DNA of 64,000 bases from Escherichia phage slur07. The position numbers and the translations under genes are program-made. Where the stretch lies: the sequence record NC_028780.1, one strand, 5' to 3'. The stretch's first letter is position 1; each line of letters starts with the position of its first letter. This document shows, piece by piece, positions 2,372 through 57,128 of this stretch. A model generated the notes under the pieces. It was not told the DNA's origin and searched no databases. It saw nothing but the letters and a program-made list of their open reading frames with translations.

Positions 2372-2556
2372 TTACTCGCGAACAAAAGAACGAAATATTA
2401 TTTTTAGTTGGTGAAATTATTAGTTTAGAAAAGGATTTGTCTTTTGAAATATCTTCTGAATATGGAGATGCCGAAACATATTACGAATTAGTAAAATCTA
2501 TCGATAAAGTTGAAAATGATTTAGAAACATATTTAGAAAATTTAACTAAGGACTAA
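2368..2556 (+). CDS. hypothetical small acidic helical protein (paralog of previous)
   Basis: 62 aa; MITREQKNEILFL... similar to MSLSKEQKDKLFSL... Confidence 0.45.
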   Translation: MITREQKNEILFLVGEIISLEKDLSFEISSEYGDAETYYELVKSIDKVENDLETYLENLTKD

Positions 2557-2557
2557 G

Positions 2558-3139
2558 ATGGCGAGTTTAATTTTTACTTATGCAGCAATGAATGCTGGAA
2601 AATCTGCTTCTCTTTTGACTGCTGCACATAATTATAAAGAACGTGGAATGAGTGTATTAGTTCTTAAGCCTGCTATTGATACTCGCGATTCTGTCTGTGA
2701 AGTCGTTTCTCGCATTGGAATTAAGCAGGAAGCGAATATTATTACAGATGATATGGATATTTTCGAGTTCTATAAATGGGCTGAAGCACAAAAAGATATT
2801 CATTGCGTATTTGTAGATGAAGCTCAGTTTTTAAAAACTGAACAGGCGCATCAATTGAGCCGAATTGTTGATACATATAATGTTCCTGTTATGGCTTATG
2901 GGCTAAGGACTGATTTCGCTGGAAAATTATTTGAAGGTTCTAAAGAACTTTTAGCGATTGCAGATAAACTTATTGAACTAAAGGCAGTTTGTCATTGTGG
3001 TAAAAAAGCGATTATGACAGCTCGATTAATGGAAGATGGATCACCAGTTAAAGAAGGTAATCAAATCTGTATTGGTGATGAAATTTATGTTTCTTTGTGT
3101 AGAAAACATTGGAATGAATTAACTAAAAAGCTCGGTTAG
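2558..3139 (+). CDS. tk: thymidine kinase
   Basis: 193 aa; P-loop YAAMNAGKS, VDEAQF, C-terminal Cys/His zinc site (CHCG...C); matches T4 Tk length. Confidence 0.9.
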   Translation: MASLIFTYAAMNAGKSASLLTAAHNYKERGMSVLVLKPAIDTRDSVCEVVSRIGIKQEANIITDDMDIFEFYKWAEAQKDIHCVFVDEAQFLKTEQAHQLSRIVDTYNVPVMAYGLRTDFAGKLFEGSKELLAIADKLIELKAVCHCGKKAIMTARLMEDGSPVKEGNQICIGDEIYVSLCRKHWNELTKKLG

Positions 3140-3181
3140 TGCAAAAGTTATAAATAGGTTTATCTAACTAAAGGGGTATAT

Positions 3182-3394
3182 ATGCTACAATTAACTGAAA
3201 AGCAACTTCGCAATCTTACTGTTCTTCAATTAGATGAAATTCGTAGGGAAGTTGGAAATATCATTTCAGCTTTGCGTCGAGAAGTATCACTCAACCAATC
3301 TCCGGCAGACTATACTAGATTGCGAAATTTTGAAAAATACCTTGATAAAGTTAAGGCCGTGCATCGGCATAAAGTAAATACAGGACAAAAATGA
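3182..3394 (+). CDS. hypothetical protein (rI.1 position)
   Basis: 70 aa ORF between tk and rI with SD-like aaagggg upstream. Confidence 0.45.
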
Positions 3395-3406
3395 TAGGAG
3401 GCCTTT

Positions 3407-3700
3407 ATGGCCTTAAAAGCAACGGCACTTTTTGCCATGCTAGGATTGTCATTTGTTTTATCTCCATCGATTGAAGCGAATGTCGATCCTCATTTTGATA
3501 AATTTATGGAATCTGGTATTAGGCACGTTTATATGCTTTTTGAAAATAAAAGCGTAGAATCGTCTGAACAATTCTATAGTTTTATGAGAACGACCTATAA
3601 AAATGACCCGTGCTCTTCTGATTTTGAATGTATAGAACGAGGCGCGGAGATGGCACAATCATACGCTAGAATTATGAACATTAAATTGGAGACTGAATGA
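3407..3700 (+). CDS. rI: lysis inhibition regulator rI
   Basis: 97 aa; N-terminal signal-anchor (ALFAMLGLSFVLSP); size and position next to tk match T4 rI. Confidence 0.75.
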   Translation: MALKATALFAMLGLSFVLSPSIEANVDPHFDKFMESGIRHVYMLFENKSVESSEQFYSFMRTTYKNDPCSSDFECIERGAEMAQSYARIMNIKLETE

Positions 3701-4083
3701 AATTCAGCGACTTTTCACAAAGTGGAAAACCTTCAAAGGCAGATGAATACTTAGGTTTATTAATGGCTGCACAAGCTTATTTTCATTCTGCACATTTTGA
3801 AACTAAAAGTTATGCTAGACACAAAGCATACGATTTTATTTTCTCCGAGTTGCCAGATTTGATTGATAAATTTGGTGAGCAATATTTGGGGTATTCTGGT
3901 AGAAAATACACACCTTCAATTCCAGATGCCAGTAAACTTCCTACCGACACAATTAAAATGATTGATCACATACTAGACCAATCTAACAGCATTTATAAAG
4001 AAATGCCTCCAGCCATCCAAAGCACGATAGATGATATTACTGGAATGTTTTACCAGAGTAAGTATCTTCTTTCCCTCGAATAA
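3697..4083 (+). CDS. hypothetical protein (rI.-1 position)
   Basis: 128 aa; ATGA-coupled to rI; followed by terminator. Confidence 0.5.
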
Positions 4084-4087
4084 CATT

Positions 4088-4110
4088 AGTCTCCTTCGGG
4101 AGACTTTTTT
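4088..4110 (+). terminator. rho-independent terminator
   Basis: agtctcc-ttcg-ggagact hairpin followed by T6. Confidence 0.75.
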
Positions 4111-4120
4111 CATTTTACCG

Positions 4121-4181
4121 GTTTACTTTCCGTTTGAGCTGTGGTACTATACAACTATCGGATAAAGAGGAGAACATCATG
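4121..4181 (+). repeat. PeSL-like early promoter/leader cassette (copy 1)
   Basis: GTTTAC 4121-4126, 18-nt spacer, TGgTACTAT 4142-4150, conserved leader ...ctatacaactatc..., SD, ATG 4179. Confidence 0.7.
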
Positions 4182-4367
4182 AAAATTGAAGCACTTAATC
4201 AAGAAGGAAATATCTACGTCATCATTAATGGTGATTTTTTCGTCGACATGGATGAAGTTACTAGTGAAGAACTTGTAGAATTTCTTAAGAAACGTTATAA
4301 TATGTGTGATGAAGTTGCAACTCACATGGCGTGTGCAATATTCTCTCTTTCATATGTGGTGGAATAA
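4179..4367 (+). CDS. hypothetical protein
   Basis: 62 aa from ATG 4179 downstream of cassette; track ORF start 4134 rejected because it translates the promoter leader. Confidence 0.5.
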
Positions 4368-4572: not shown

Positions 4573-4767
4573 ATGCTAACACGCGAACAGTTTGAAAAAA
4601 TCATTAAATTAGCACGTGATATTGAAATAGATTCATATCAATTAGCAGTTGAGCATTGTGAAGGATATTCATACGACGGTATAGAAGCAGCTAAAAAGGA
4701 TTTGGATAAATCCAAAGCTAAGTTAGTTCAATATCTTGAAATGATTAGGTGGAATAATGAAAACTGA
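4573..4767 (+). CDS. hypothetical small helical protein
   Basis: 64 aa; MLTREQFEKIIKL... family-like N-terminus. Confidence 0.45.
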   Translation: MLTREQFEKIIKLARDIEIDSYQLAVEHCEGYSYDGIEAAKKDLDKSKAKLVQYLEMIRWNNEN

Positions 4768-4930
4768 AAAGCAGATGTTTTTAATGAAGCTAATTGAAGA
4801 ATATGCTAATGCAGTTTCTGACTATGAATGTTCTTCTCGTGAAAGAGGTACAGCTTTCGCAAAGGAAGAAATGAAAATCATGGTTGATGCTCATACAAAG
4901 CTTCAGAATTTTATCGAAAACGTCATTTAA
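4757..4930 (+). CDS. hypothetical small protein
   Basis: 57 aa ORF not in track; MKTEKQMFLMKLIEEY...; overlaps upstream gene by 11 nt. Confidence 0.35.
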   Translation: MKTEKQMFLMKLIEEYANAVSDYECSSRERGTAFAKEEMKIMVDAHTKLQNFIENVI

Positions 4931-4932
4931 TG

Positions 4933-4962
4933 GTTTACAAGTTGGCAAGGTTATGGTATAGT
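4933..4962 (+). promoter_or_regulatory. T4-type early promoter
   Basis: GTTTAC 4933-4938, 18 nt, TGGTATAGT (-10 4957-4962). Confidence 0.6.
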
Positions 4963-5094
4963 AATCTTGTCAACTGCCAAGGAGAAGAGAATGAAAGTTT
5001 TGTTTGTTGTGTATGTGGTGATTCAATATAATTACCCAATGTTTACTTATAATCTGGTGAACAACATTATTGATATGATTCAGAGGAGTATGTA

Positions 5095-25861: not shown

Positions 25862-26048
25862 CATTAATGATGAATTCATAGCAAACATTGATTATACCGA
25901 AGAAGATTCTAGATATGTTGGAATAATTTACATTACATCAAAAACAGCACAAGGCGTTGTTTGCATGGCTGAATTTGACGAATACTTTTTAGATTATGAT
26001 GATATGATAGAATGGTCTAAAAGATACATTAAAAGGAATCTTTTGTGA
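25833..26048 (+). CDS. hypothetical protein (46.x position)
   Basis: about 71 aa; start uncertain (track ORF 25785..26048). Confidence 0.35.
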   Translation: MHTVKFSTFDINDEFIANIDYTEEDSRYVGIIYITSKTAQGVVCMAEFDEYFLDYDDMIEWSKRYIKRNLL

Positions 26049-27733
26049 AGAATTTTAAACTAAATCGAGTTAGGTATCAAAATATAATGTCAGTAGGTGG
26101 AAATCCTATTGACATTCAATTAGATAAGGTTCAAAAAACTCTTATTACTGGACGAAATGGCGGTGGTAAGTCTACTATGCTAGAAGCCATCACATTTGGG
26201 CTTTTTGGCAAGCCATTTCGTGATGTAAAGAAAGGTCAATTAATAAACAGCACAAATAAGAAAGAACTTTTAGTTGAACTGTGGATGGAATATGATGAGA
26301 AAAAGTACTATATCAAAAGAGGACAAAAACCGAACGTTTTCGAAATCACCGTTAACGGTACACGTCTTAATGAATCTGCCAGCAGTAAAGATTTCCAAGC
26401 AGAATTTGAACAGCTTATCGGAATGTCATATGCCAGTTTCAAGCAGATTGTTGTCCTTGGTACAGCAGGGTATACCCCTTTCATGGGTTTGTCGACCCCT
26501 GCACGAAGAAAGCTTGTGGAAGACCTGCTTGAGGTAGGAACATTAGCTGAAATGGATAAGCTTAATAAAGCACTAATACGTGAATTAAATTCACAAAACC
26601 AAGTGCTTGATGTTAAAAAAGATAGTATTATCCAACAAATTAAAATATATAATGATAACGTTGAACGCCAGAAAAAATTAACGGGTGACAACCTTACTCG
26701 TCTGCAAAATATGTACGATGATTTGGCAAAAGAAGCTAGAACGCTAAAATCGGAAATAGAAGAAGCTAATGAAAGATTAGTTAATATTGTTTTGGATGAA
26801 GACCCGACTGATGCATTTAATAAAATCGGTCAAGAAGCAGTTTTAATTAAATCAAAAATTGACTCATATAATAAAGTCATTAATATGTATCACGAAGGTG
26901 GATTATGTCCAACCTGTTTGTCGCAATTAAGTTCCGGTGATAAAGTTGTTTCTAAAATTAAAGATAAAGTTTCTGAATGCACGCATTCGTTTGAACAGCT
27001 TTCAACACATCGTGATAATTTAAAAGTTCTTGTTGATGAATACCGAGATAATATTAAAACCCAACAGTCGTTGGCAAATGATATTCGCAATAAAAAGCAA
27101 TCTCTAATCACGACGGTAGATAAAGCTAAAAAAGTTAAAGCGGCTATAGAAAAAGCATCTTCTGAGTTTATTGACCATGCTGATGAAATAGCACTGCTTC
27201 AAGAAGAACTTGATAAAATTGTTAAGACAAAAACTAATTTAGTAATGGAAAAATACCACCGAGGAATTTTGACTGATATGCTCAAAGATTCTGGTATTAA
27301 AGGTGCTATTATTAAAAAGTACATTCCATTATTTAATAAGCAGATTAACCATTATCTTAAAATAATGGAAGCGGATTATGTGTTTACATTAGATGAAGAA
27401 TTTAATGAGACAATTAAATCCCGTGGTCGTGAAGATTTTAGTTATGCTTCATTCAGTCAAGGTGAAAAAGCACGAATTGATATTGCTCTTTTATTTACTT
27501 GGCGTGATATTGCTGAAAAAGTTTCAGGTGTTAAAATAAGTTGTTTATTTCTTGATGAAGTGTATGACGGTGCATTTGATGCTGAAGGTATTAAAAATGT
27601 AGCTAAAATTTTAGATGGTTTGAAGGATACCAACTTCTTCATAATTTCGCATAAAGACCATGACCCACAAGAATATGGTCAGCATATTCAGATGGAAAAA
27701 GTTGGTAGATTTAGTTTAGCTAAGATTAGCTAA
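26045..27733 (+). CDS. 46: recombination ATPase subunit gp46 (Rad50/SbcC-like)
   Basis: 562 aa; Walker A GRNGGGKST, central coiled coil with CPTC zinc hook, C-terminal LFLDEVYDG. Confidence 0.9.
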   Translation: MKNFKLNRVRYQNIMSVGGNPIDIQLDKVQKTLITGRNGGGKSTMLEAITFGLFGKPFRDVKKGQLINSTNKKELLVELWMEYDEKKYYIKRGQKPNVFEITVNGTRLNESASSKDFQAEFEQLIGMSYASFKQIVVLGTAGYTPFMGLSTPARRKLVEDLLEVGTLAEMDKLNKALIRELNSQNQVLDVKKDSIIQQIKIYNDNVERQKKLTGDNLTRLQNMYDDLAKEARTLKSEIEEANERLVNIVLDEDPTDAFNKIGQEAVLIKSKIDSYNKVINMYHEGGLCPTCLSQLSSGDKVVSKIKDKVSECTHSFEQLSTHRDNLKVLVDEYRDNIKTQQSLANDIRNKKQSLITTVDKAKKVKAAIEKASSEFIDHADEIALLQEELDKIVKTKTNLVMEKYHRGILTDMLKDSGIKGAIIKKYIPLFNKQINHYLKIMEADYVFTLDEEFNETIKSRGREDFSYASFSQGEKARIDIALLFTWRDIAEKVSGVKISCLFLDEVYDGAFDAEGIKNVAKILDGLKDTNFFIISHKDHDPQEYGQHIQMEKVGRFSLAKIS

Positions 27734-28442
27734 GTTTATATTTACAGTTATCATTATGCCACCTTGATAAATTTCCGAAAGTGGTAACTTTACCGCAATG
27801 GACGCAAGTACCAGTCTTTTCAGTTTTCTTGCGTCCATTTGGATTTTTCTTGCAGAAATTTCTATGCGCTGCGATAACGCATTTCTTGCCTATCATTCCG
27901 CAGAATTCGCAGGATGTTTCTTCAAGAACGATTGCTTTAAGCCCGTTTGAGATATTATTTCTGTGTTCTTTAGACATTGGTGGTCTAACTTTAGGATTGG
28001 GGTGATTTGGGCAGTTATCAAAATGCCAACGATTCATATTCCCGCTTAATCCAGACTTACCGCAATGAGGACAAGTTAGTCTTGCTTTATTAGCTACTGC
28101 ATCAGACATTTTCTTTCGTGTCTCCTGGGAGAATTCTTTATTCTTTTCTATTTCCCAGAGTTTACGACGAATCCAACCGAAAGTTTTATTGTTGCGTTTA
28201 GCGTATTTTGTGGAAACTGTCATCATGTTAGCAGCATAGACTAATTTTGGTTCAGAAGGATAAATTTTTACTAAAAGTTGATGAGCTACATAGTGCTCTT
28301 CTGGTGTTAAATCTACTAAGTTTGAGGCATCATCGCTGCCATTTAAACAGCGTGGTATAATGTGATGAGATTCAGTATAGCAATCAAGTTTTCGAGATTT
28401 AGCATTAGAGATTAACTTTTCATAAATTAGTTTATAATTCAT
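27726..28442 (-). mobile_element. free-standing HNH homing endonuclease-like gene (Mob-type), antisense
   Basis: 238 aa minus-strand ORF with SD; HNH motif ESHHIIPR...N...H; three repeated Cys zinc-finger units (CPHCGK...WHFDNC, CEFCG...C, CVHCGK...WHNDNC); convergent with 46. Confidence 0.75.
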
Positions 28443-28694: not shown

Positions 28695-29084
28695 ATGACT
28701 AAAATTACTGTGAATTATACTGTTGACGTAAAAGATATTCAGCCAAAACACGTGCGTTCTGAATCAAATCCACAAAACCAAAATAAAATTCGTCGAGCAT
28801 GGGTTTTGTCTCTTTCTGATAACGCAATGGAAGTTATTCAGAACAAAATTAAATCTGCACCTGCTCGTCATGCGTATTATGAAGCTATCGATCGTGAAGT
28901 AAGTAATAAATGGATTGAACTAATGCGCAAACATACTACAGAATCCCTAAACGCCGGTGCTAAATTTATTATGACTTCATGTGGTGAACGCCTTGAAGAT
29001 GATTATTGTGGTAATGCAGATGAACGTCTAATTGTTGCTGCTCAAATTGTTGCGGAAACAATTGCGGCTGATTTTAATCGTTAA
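28695..29084 (+). CDS. rpbA: RNA polymerase-binding protein RpbA
   Basis: 129 aa (T4 RpbA length); position immediately upstream of gene 45. Confidence 0.7.
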
Positions 29085-53420: not shown

Positions 53421-53507
53421 TTCATAAAACTATATACATCAGTAGTTGATTATGGTACTATATCAATATCAACTACTGATACAGAAAACAACTTGGAGAA
53501 TAAAATG
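53421..53507 (+). repeat. PeSL-like promoter/leader cassette with 11-bp perfect stem (copy 5)
   Basis: CAGTAGTTGAT 53440-53450 / ATCAACTACTG 53468-53478 enclose TGGTACTAT (-10 53456-53461); -35 degenerate; leader ends ..cttggagaataaaATG 53505. Confidence 0.7.
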
Positions 53508-53774
53508 GAAAACTTAATTATCATCGAGCAATCTTTCAACGATTATGGTATGGCTTACGGTTATCGTGCGATAATGGAAGATTCTCGTGGATGTGTTATC
53601 GATATTGCTGAATGTAAAGATTTACTGCAGCTTTTGAAGATTGTTCGCAAAAATTGGGATTGTGAAAACATTAAAGCTCGTGTTGTAACGGAAGAAGAAA
53701 CTGTTTTTCATGATGTAAAATTTGCCAAAGGTGCTGCTACTCTTCTGAAACGCATCGCTCCACTGTTCAATTAA
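53505..53774 (+). CDS. hypothetical protein
   Basis: 89 aa from ATG 53505 downstream of cassette. Confidence 0.45.
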   Translation: MENLIIIEQSFNDYGMAYGYRAIMEDSRGCVIDIAECKDLLQLLKIVRKNWDCENIKARVVTEEETVFHDVKFAKGAATLLKRIAPLFN

Positions 53775-54424: not shown

Positions 54425-54601
54425 ATGCCAATGTATGATTATAAATGCCAATCCGAAGATTGCGGGCATGAATATGAAAAAATTAAAAAGATTTCTGAAC
54501 GAGAAAATGATGTTTGTCCTAAATGTCATCGTCTGTCTACTCGTCGGCCTTCTGCTCCTAAGCATGTGAATGGCGGTTTTTACGACTTACTTAAAGGGTA
54601 A
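54425..54601 (+). CDS. zinc-ribbon small protein
   Basis: 58 aa ORF not in track; YKCQSEDCGH...CPKCH four-ligand ribbon. Confidence 0.4.
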   Translation: MPMYDYKCQSEDCGHEYEKIKKISERENDVCPKCHRLSTRRPSAPKHVNGGFYDLLKG

Positions 54602-54603
54602 TT

Positions 54604-54975
54604 ATGTTTAAAATCGGTAAGAAGTATCGCATTCGTGAAGGTGAAGAACAGAAATATCTATTTTCTGCTAGTAATAGGAATAGTTCTATTAATGCTGTAA
54701 TATTGACTAGTGAATTTATCGTTGAAGATATGAAAGGTCATAATGTTACAATGATTAGTACAGCATCTGGAAATGATGGAAAAATTCTTCATAGTTGTCA
54801 GAGTAATGTTCTAATTTATGATGAAGAATTTGACTTCTTCAAAGAAGTTTCCGAAGATTTTGATTTTGAATGTACTATTACTATGAAATCTGGTGACCCT
54901 CTTTCTTTTACAGTTAAAGATGAAAGAAGTCGCTTGAGAATTATTAGTCTTCTTCAAGCCATTAAATTTGAGTGA
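54604..54975 (+). CDS. hypothetical protein
   Basis: 123 aa ORF. Confidence 0.4.
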   Translation: MFKIGKKYRIREGEEQKYLFSASNRNSSINAVILTSEFIVEDMKGHNVTMISTASGNDGKILHSCQSNVLIYDEEFDFFKEVSEDFDFECTITMKSGDPLSFTVKDERSRLRIISLLQAIKFE

Positions 54976-55241
54976 AAATTATGAAATATATTAATCGTTC
55001 TATCGCTGCATTAGTATTAGCAGTGTCTTTAGCAGGATGTACTGATGCTGATAATGCAACCAAAGTTTTATCTTCAAGTGGTTTTACTAATATTGAAATC
55101 ACTGGATATAATTGGTTTGGTTGTTCTGAAAATGATTTCCAACATACTGGATTTCGTGCTATTGGACCTACTGGGCAGAAAGTAGAAGGAACAGTATGTT
55201 CTGGTCTATTCTTCAAAGATTCGACTATCCGTTTTAAATAA
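54972..55241 (+). CDS. putative lipoprotein
   Basis: 89 aa; signal peptide with lipobox LAGC (MKYINRSIAALVLAVSLAGCTD). Confidence 0.5.
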   Translation: MKIMKYINRSIAALVLAVSLAGCTDADNATKVLSSSGFTNIEITGYNWFGCSENDFQHTGFRAIGPTGQKVEGTVCSGLFFKDSTIRFK

Positions 55242-55243
55242 AA

Positions 55244-55258
55244 GGCCTTCGGGCCTTT
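55244..55258 (+). terminator. rho-independent terminator
   Basis: GGCCTTCGGGCC hairpin followed by TTTAGCTTT. Confidence 0.6.
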
Positions 55259-55283
55259 AGCTTTATGATTACCGGAGTATAAT
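55259..55283 (+). promoter_or_regulatory. putative MotA-dependent middle promoter for gene 39
   Basis: aGCTTTA 55259-55265, 12 nt, TATAAT 55278-55283. Confidence 0.55.
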
Positions 55284-55310
55284 ATTCCCGAAACCAAACG
55301 AGGATAAGTG

Positions 55311-57128
55311 ATGATTAAGAATGAAATTAAAATTCTGAGCGATATTGAACACATCAAAAAGCGTAGTGGCATGTACATTGGTTCTTCAGCTAATGAAATG
55401 CATGAGCGCTTTCTGTTTGGTAAATGGGAAAGTGTTCAGTATGTACCTGGTCTTGTTAAGCTTATTGATGAAATTATCGATAACTCAGTAGATGAAGGTA
55501 TTCGTACTAAGTTTAAATTCGCAAATAAAATTAATGTTACTATTAAAAATAATCAGGTAACAGTTGAAGATAACGGTCGTGGTATTCCACAGGCTATGGT
55601 TAAAACACCTACTGGTGAAGAAATTCCTGGTCCTGTTGCTGCATGGACTATTCCAAAAGCAGGTGGTAACTTTGGTGATGATAAAGAACGCGTCACTGGC
55701 GGTATGAATGGTGTTGGTTCTAGTTTGACAAACATTTTTTCTGTGATGTTTGTCGGTGAAACTGGTGATGGTCAAAATAATATTGTAGTTCGTTGTTCAA
55801 ACGGCATGGAAAATAAATCATGGGAAGATATTCCTGGAAAATGGAAAGGAACTCGTGTTACTTTCATTCCTGATTTTATGTCATTTGAAACTAATGAGCT
55901 GTCCCAAGTTTATCTTGACATTACACTAGATCGTCTCCAGACACTTGCAGTAGTTTATCCTGATATTCAATTTACCTTTAATGGTAAAAAGGTTCAGGGC
56001 AATTTTAAGAAATATGCACGACAGTATGATGAACATGCTATTGTTCAAGAACAAGAAAATTGTTCTATTGCGGTTGGTCGTTCACCGGATGGTTTTCGTC
56101 AATTAACATACGTCAATAACATTCATACTAAGAATGGTGGCCATCACATTGACTGTGTTATGGATGATATTTGTGAAGACCTTATTCCACAAATCAAACG
56201 TAAGTTCAAAATTGATGTAACTAAAGCACGCGTTAAAGAATGTTTGACTATCGTTATGTTTGTTCGTGATATGAAAAACATGCGATTTGATTCTCAAACT
56301 AAAGAGCGTTTGACTTCTCCATTTGGTGAAATCCGTAGTCATATTCAGCTTGATGCTAAAAAGATTTCACGTGCTATTCTAAATAATGAAGCAATTCTAA
56401 TGCCGATTATTGAAGCTGCCTTGGCTCGTAAATTGGCAGCAGAAAAAGCAGCTGAAACTAAAGCAGCTAAAAAGGCCTCTAAGGCAAAGGTTCATAAACA
56501 TATTAAAGCGAATCTTTGCGGTAAAGATGCTGACACTACTCTTTTCTTGACTGAGGGTGATTCTGCTATCGGATATCTTATTGATGTTCGTGATAAAGAA
56601 CTTCACGGTGGTTATCCATTGCGTGGTAAAGTTCTTAATAGCTGGGGTATGTCATATGCCGATATGCTTAAAAACAAAGAACTATTTGATATTTGCGCAA
56701 TCACTGGTCTAGTTCTTGGTGAAAAAGCTGAAAACTTGAATTATCATAATATTGCTATTATGACTGATGCTGACCATGATGGTCTAGGAAGCATTTATCC
56801 TTCTCTGCTCGGGTTTTTTAGTAATTGGCCAGAATTGTTTGAGCAAGGAAGAATTCGCTTTGTCAAAACTCCTGTAATCATCGCTCAGGTCGGTAAAAAA
56901 CAAGAATGGTTTTATACAGTCGCTGAATATGAGAGTGCCAAAGATGCTCTACCTAAACATAGCATCCGTTATATTAAAGGACTTGGCTCTTTGGAAAAAT
57001 CTGAATATCGTGAGATGATTCAAAATCCAGTATATGATGTTGTTAAACTTCCTGAGAACTGGAAAGAGCTTTTTGAAATGCTCATGGGAGATAATGCTGA
57101 CCTTCGTAAAGAATGGATGAGCCAGTAG
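55311..57128 (+). CDS. 39: DNA topoisomerase II large subunit, unsplit (ATPase + TOPRIM in one ORF)
   Basis: 605 aa from ATG 55311; GHKL ATPase motifs plus C-terminal TOPRIM (LTEGDSA, IMTDADHDG), which in T4 lies in separate gene 60. Confidence 0.9.
   Translation: MIKNEIKILSDIEHIKKRSGMYIGSSANEMHERFLFGKWESVQYVPGLVKLIDEIIDNSVDEGIRTKFKFANKINVTIKNNQVTVEDNGRGIPQAMVKTPTGEEIPGPVAAWTIPKAGGNFGDDKERVTGGMNGVGSSLTNIFSVMFVGETGDGQNNIVVRCSNGMENKSWEDIPGKWKGTRVTFIPDFMSFETNELSQVYLDITLDRLQTLAVVYPDIQFTFNGKKVQGNFKKYARQYDEHAIVQEQENCSIAVGRSPDGFRQLTYVNNIHTKNGGHHIDCVMDDICEDLIPQIKRKFKIDVTKARVKECLTIVMFVRDMKNMRFDSQTKERLTSPFGEIRSHIQLDAKKISRAILNNEAILMPIIEAALARKLAAEKAAETKAAKKASKAKVHKHIKANLCGKDADTTLFLTEGDSAIGYLIDVRDKELHGGYPLRGKVLNSWGMSYADMLKNKELFDICAITGLVLGEKAENLNYHNIAIMTDADHDGLGSIYPSLLGFFSNWPELFEQGRIRFVKTPVIIAQVGKKQEWFYTVAEYESAKDALPKHSIRYIKGLGSLEKSEYREMIQNPVYDVVKLPENWKELFEMLMGDNADLRKEWMSQ

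Follow-up and report, generated by a model that had tools for sequence, protein, structure and literature searches.

The topoisomerase locus of this phage raises the question of whether the large subunit of the enzyme is encoded in two pieces, as in T4, where it is divided between genes 39 and 60, or in one, and, if in one, what state of the gene this represents. The 64,000-nucleotide stretch of DNA analyzed here (the window) contains a single open reading frame at 55308..57128 on the + strand, which specifies 606 amino acids when read from a GTG codon and 605 amino acids plus a stop codon when read from the ATG at 55311 (ORF listing of the 64-kb window). This ATG is the start codon that is also annotated for the T4, T2, and T6 genes, and a putative Shine–Dalgarno sequence, GAGG (55300..55303, + strand), can be read 7 nt upstream of it. 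The chance of an open frame of 606 codons in DNA of 35% G+C is ∼3e-20 (a hand estimate from a stop codon frequency of ∼0.071 given by the base composition). The ORF and blastp comparison with T4 gp39 and gp60 identify 55311..57128 (+ strand) as an unsplit gene 39 (“60plus39”) encoding the GyrB-like large subunit of the T-even type IIA topoisomerase, and the protein matches PHROG family phrog_543, “DNA topoisomerase II large subunit” (E 2.4e-295). A consensus scan around the gene gave seven promoter-like sites, compared with 10.1 expected, and no terminators.

The protein has four recognizable parts, all in this one frame. A GHKL ATPase domain occupies amino acids 47–149 (55449..55757, + strand; Pfam HATPase_c, E 2e-9, 38.3 bits vs. 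a cut-off of 26.4), a transducer domain amino acids 250–384 (56058..56462, + strand; Pfam DNA_gyraseB PF00204, E 1.4e-13, 51.1 bits vs. a cut-off of 27), an unbroken Toprim core amino acids 410–492 (56538..56786, + strand), and a TOPRIM_C domain, which corresponds to the body of T4 gp60, amino acids 519–604 (56865..57122, + strand; above the Pfam cut-off, E 4.2e-7, and matched to gp60 by blastp). The Toprim core scores below threshold in Pfam (17.5 bits vs. a cut-off of 23.1); it is nevertheless accepted as contiguous because the protein aligns over its full length with T6 gp39, whose structure shows the metal site. The motif LTEGDSA (amino acids 413–419, 56547–56567, + strand) includes E415, and MTDADHDG (amino acids 484–491, 56760–56783, + strand) includes D486 and D488, so the three residues of the Toprim E...DxD metal site are all in one chain here. 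The sequence-only reading of this locus had reported a single 605-amino-acid ORF at 55311–57128 carrying these two motifs, and both are indeed present in one frame; the ATPase motifs and the catalytic E...DxD are intact.

Comparison with the T4 reference (NC_000866) by blastp, by blastn, and codon by codon shows where the T4 gene is divided. Amino acids 1–473 of the protein are 99% identical to T4 gp39 residues 1–473 (466/473), and amino acids 472–605 are 96% identical to gp60 residues 27–160 (128/134); without the T4-specific N-terminus of gp60, the shared part is amino acids ∼477–605, or gp60 residues 32–160. The ORF therefore corresponds to T4 gp39 plus gp60, as had been proposed, and its C-terminal TOPRIM region is a genuine homolog of gp60. 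The aligned ORFs differ at 73 nucleotides, overwhelmingly at synonymous positions, and only seven of the 473 amino acids that align with gp39 are changed. The two DNAs are collinear up to window position 56728 (T4 3911) and again from 56793 (T4 2793). The final codon common to T4 gene 39 is that of A473 (GCT, 56727..56729, + strand), and the codon comparison, the end of the blastn match at 56728, and an alignment with HY01, which has an intact 272-amino-acid MobA, all show that the MobA element of T4 and HY01 has its 5′ boundary directly after it; the HY01 alignment has the same two breaks as that of T4, at 56729/56730 and 56792/56793. Between the two matching segments lie 63 bp (56730..56792, + strand; ORF nt 1420–1482, amino acids 474–494) that are replaced in T4. 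This “parental” segment corresponds to homR of the element, and it presumably contains the site that MobA recognizes and nicks.

These alignments place the T4 split inside the Toprim domain, between E415 (in gp39) and D486/D488 (in gp60), and not between the ATPase and Toprim domains. The earlier statement that T4 divides the two domains between genes 39 and 60 is thus right in that the split is real, and inexact if it was meant to equate gp39 with the ATPase and gp60 with the Toprim domain. In T4, 1116 nt (3909..2794) stand in place of the 63 nt at 56730–56792. After A473, T4 has a 43-amino-acid tail specific to gp39 and its stop codon, the mobA pseudogene, ORF 60.1, and a unique 31-amino-acid N-terminus of gp60; these are followed by a diverged copy of codons 477–491 (homR), GGA-TAG, the 50-nt gap, and TTA GGT TCT.

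In the present phage the junction is in frame throughout and reads GAA AAC TTG AAT TAT CAT AAT ATT GCT ATT ATG ACT GAT GCT GAC CAT GAT GGT CTA GGA AGC. Where T4 has GGA, the 50-nt coding gap, and TTA, this phage has GGT CTA (G491–L492, 56781..56786, + strand), and at the bypass position GAT GGT/CTA GGA continues without a gap, a stop codon, or a GGA take-off codon. The 63-nt segment differs from T4 homR at 17 of 54 aligned nucleotides (31%), whereas mismatches elsewhere in the gene amount to 3.2%; this shows that it is parental and not derived from the element. In blastn and tblastn searches of the whole 64-kb window, the T4-specific 1012 bp, the 50-nt gap, the gp39 tail, the gp60 N-terminus, and the ORF 60.1 peptides gave only chance-level matches (E at least 1 in tblastn for the gp39 tail and the gp60 N-terminus), and the sole above-chance match to the cassette is between a piece of MobA and an unrelated HNH gene (27726–28442, discussed below). 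The locus is without any part or scar of the MobA element, and the claim that neither a gene 60/mobA cassette nor a translational bypass element is present holds for the locus and for the window as a whole. The phage is also not T4 itself, as had been stated: the regions flanking gene 39 are 87–97% identical to T4 (87–91% upstream), and two stretches have no T4 counterpart.

The arrangement is that of T2 and T6. Each of these phages (AP018813 and AP018814, respectively) has an 1818-nt ORF at 2447–4264, directly upstream of rIIA.1 and rIIA, and their gp39 proteins have the same 605-amino-acid length and the same genomic position as the protein described here. It differs from T2 gp39 at one residue (F70L) and is ∼99.5% identical to the T6 protein; the DNA is identical to that of T2 at 1764 of 1818 positions, the 54 substitutions being scattered and mostly synonymous. 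Only three columns vary in a protein alignment of this phage, T2, T6, and vB_Eco_QOTSP. A 120-nt stretch across the junction (56691–56810) is identical to T2 at all 120 positions and is also identical to QOTSP, and T6 differs from it at five third-codon positions. The T6 Topo II structure PDB 8YLU (8ylu_C) aligns over residues 1–605 (1385 bits); further T6 Topo II entries are 8YO1, 8YO5, and 8YOD, and 8YO3 is an artificial fusion of T4 gp39 and gp60. The Topo II of T2 and T6 has two subunits and that of T4 three; an insertion of ∼70 amino acids breaks the T4 Toprim domain, and the T6 enzyme is active as a two-subunit enzyme with a metal site formed by E415, D486, and D488 (PMC11461880). The overall architecture of the T6-type enzyme is nearer to that of the eukaryotic enzymes (PMC11461880). 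The order ATPase–transducer–Toprim is shared by the protein described here, by GyrB/ParE, and by eukaryotic Topo II in its N-terminal half; the phage protein aligns over its full length with human TOP2A/B and yeast Top2 (E ∼1e-56 to 1e-59). Compared with these cellular enzymes it is phage-sized and lacks the GyrB-type insertion.

An unsplit gene 39 is common among the relatives of this phage. Of the 561 phage records that match this region of DNA, nearly all are Tequatrovirus, the best match being vB_Eco_QOTSP (∼99.3% identity). At a coverage of at least 80%, 445 phage records have the uninterrupted 131-nt junction (56700–56830) and 42 have the T4-type junction with the gap; the unsplit state is therefore found in ∼91% of the sequenced close relatives and is ∼10 times commoner than the T4 type (∼9%). 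The 1012-bp cassette is present in 41 records at 80% coverage or more, several of which are T4 laboratory strains or duplicate RefSeq/GenBank entries. The cassette in the T4 reference (NC_000866 2898–3909) is 11 nt longer than that of T4T, RB55, RB59, and several resequenced T4 stocks, in which the match spans 2898–3898 at 98.4% identity. In these other records mobA is annotated as a plain homing endonuclease, whereas the T4 reference has a 38-amino-acid fragment and ORF 60.1.

Taken together, these observations indicate that this is almost certainly a Tequatrovirus gene 39 in its uninterrupted “parental” state, free of the element and translated conventionally into one 605-amino-acid chain; none of the data argue against this. 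The single polypeptide carries the GHKL ATPase, the transducer, a complete Toprim domain (E415...D486xD488), and TOPRIM_C, and its mRNA is decoded in ordinary triplets, without ribosomal bypass. By homology, the protein is expected to dimerize and to pair with gp52 to form an A2B2 two-subunit, ATP-dependent type IIA topoisomerase like that of T2 and T6; its likely function as an ATP-dependent topoisomerase follows by analogy from the active T6 enzyme, to which it is ∼99.5% identical. In T4 and ∼9% of its sequenced relatives, the MobA homing endonuclease element replaces the 63 nt inside the Toprim domain with ∼1.1 kb and so adds the C-terminal tail of gp39, the mobA gene, a new gp60 N-terminus, homR, and the 50-nt coding gap. 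The gene for the partner subunit, 52, was not found within the 64-kb window; upstream, the large ORFs correspond to uvsX, 41, 61, dda, and dexA, only small ORFs lie downstream of rIIB, and the window ends ∼3.5 kb past rIIB.

Could the uninterrupted gene have arisen from an interrupted one? An artificial origin, in which T4 or a derivative of it lost the cassette through misassembly or laboratory deletion, has a vanishingly small probability, and no observation speaks for it. A deletion of that kind in T4 would leave homR-type sequence, but the parental type is present. The DNA differs from that of T4 throughout, in the gene (3.2% mismatches) as well as upstream of it (87–91% identity), and window positions 53513–53712 and 54607–54978 lack a T4 counterpart; this divergence, the identity of the junction with that of T2, and its spread, at 80% identity or more, over 445 independent records effectively refute an artifact. 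T4 phage topoisomerase is not absolutely essential, and topoisomerase mutants have a DNA-delay phenotype, so one might also imagine that the unsplit gene is a decaying, nonfunctional copy in a phage whose topoisomerase is supplied otherwise. This idea deserves equally little credence, since the 605-codon frame is intact, the protein is ∼99.5–99.8% identical to those of T2 and T6, its differences from T4 are overwhelmingly synonymous, and the ATPase motifs and catalytic E...DxD are preserved.

Clean loss of the MobA element from an ancestor that had it, through gene conversion by an uninserted phage infecting the same cell, is somewhat more credible but still quite improbable. T-even phages recombine freely and homing endonuclease elements cycle between gain and loss, and both facts speak for such an event. 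Loss of the endonuclease and “hit and run” cases are reported in other clades (Manning and Atkins, bioRxiv 10.1101/2022.08.31.505936), but the extension tails survive in those reported cases, and the 64-kb window holds no remnant of the C-terminal or N-terminal extension and the locus no scar. The 63-nt segment is moreover of the parental type and the same as that of T2, with 17 differences from homR in 54 positions, and the unsplit state is about tenfold more frequent than the split one. If the element was nonetheless gained and lost, the allele would bear witness to a single round of the cycle in which homing elements are acquired and lost again. The description of this allele as the “naive” state, given in the sequence-only reading, is consequently best kept in a qualified form: an allele that was never invaded is the most economical reading of the uninterrupted gene, and the sequence expected after a clean restoration by recombination would be identical to it.

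The unsplit allele and the insertion coordinates have been published previously, and there is nothing new in them here. Other T4-related phages have one gene without a gap (Uzan and Miller 2010), and RB14 and RB32 already annotate the gene as “60plus39.” Manning and Atkins (bioRxiv 10.1101/2022.08.31.505936) described “parental” genomes, in which, by RB14 numbering, the element starts at nt 1399–1419 (amino acids 466–473) on its 5′ side; they put its 3′ end past G491, with 9 nt more in the T4 clade, and count 64 nt as deleted. The boundaries mapped here (nt 1419; G491 plus 9 nt; 63 nt replaced) match theirs within their stated ambiguity, and the “gp60plus39” of RB14 and RB32 and the “parental” Topo2L genomes of Manning and Atkins (2022) belong to the same allele class as the gene described here, with no substantive difference. 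The unsplit gene 39 has in fact been described biochemically (T6 gp39 corresponds to T4 gp39 plus gp60), genomically, evolutionarily (as the MobA parental genomes), and structurally (by cryo-EM of the T6 enzyme). It is the usual and long-known state among T4 relatives, and the T4 split with its ribosome-hopping insert is the exception. As the default in T4-like phages it carries little weight as a discovery, and its use is practical: it tells this DNA apart from T4, and annotators need seek no gene 60 or bypass at this locus.

It also flags 56730–56792, which is identical in T2, as a likely MobA homing site. The identity between homR and parental sequences has been reported as 67–81% (Manning and Atkins, bioRxiv 10.1101/2022.08.31.505936), and the 31% mismatch to T4 homR found here agrees with that range. 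According to the work of Bonocora et al. (2011) as cited by Manning and Atkins (bioRxiv 10.1101/2022.08.31.505936), the MobA nick site in T2 lies within the counterpart of homR, nicking by MobA and transfer of the element have been shown experimentally in T2, and the 50-nt gap protects genomes that carry the insertion. Since the junction here is identical to the target used experimentally in T2, the segment is likely to be an open homing site, susceptible to MobA.

Elsewhere in the window, a free-standing gene for a 238-amino-acid HNH homing endonuclease lies at 27726–28442 (− strand), antisense between gene 46 (26045–27733) and rpbA (28695–29084)/gene 45. A PHROG comparison assigns it to phrog_655, “homing endonuclease” (E 7.5e-69); no Pfam family matches. 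It was considered as a possible displaced MobA and rejected: its identity to the intact HY01 MobA is 39% and is limited to the N-terminal 119 amino acids (E 3e-20), and this restricted similarity indicates a Mob-family paralog and not MobA itself. Just 58 of 576 related records contain the gene; in T4 and most of the rest, the match is confined to its flanks. This phage, which has no MobA within the window, thus appears by sequence to carry another variable Mob-type element.

Several small genes near gene 39 also deserve mention. About 200 nt between motB and cef (53513–53712) have no T4 counterpart; they lie within an ORF at 53493–53774 (+ strand, 93 amino acids) that is also annotated as hypothetical in QOTSP and T2. 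The homolog of 39.2, an FmdB-like zinc-ribbon protein, is at 54425–54601 (+ strand) and has 58 amino acids, compared with 45 annotated in T4. Between this ORF and 39.1 lies an ORF of 123 amino acids (54604–54975, + strand) for which T4 DNA has no counterpart (54607–54978 is unmatched). It matches PHROG phrog_622 (unknown function) and, weakly, a goF-like family; an equally long ORF is found in T6 at 4600–4971, and T2 has a shorter one.

The 39.1 homolog that follows (54972–55241, + strand) encodes 86–89 amino acids with an N-terminal lipoprotein-like signal (...LAVSLAGC). It is annotated as 65 amino acids in T4 and 86 in T2 and T6, and the DNA of T4 is ∼96% conserved here; the start annotated in T4 may be too far downstream, or the reading frame may differ in T4. 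The 39.1/39 junction is overlapped on the opposite strand by a 138-amino-acid ORF (54962–55378, − strand), which is listed as hypothetical in QOTSP; this is probably not a real gene, since the sense strand here carries conserved genes. Finally, the sequence TAGCTTTA, followed by 12 nt and TATAAT (55258–55283, + strand), precedes the start of gene 39 by ∼30 nt. It is not among the sites listed by the sigma-70 scan, and it resembles the T4 consensus for MotA-dependent middle promoters, from which its MotA box departs by one mismatch.
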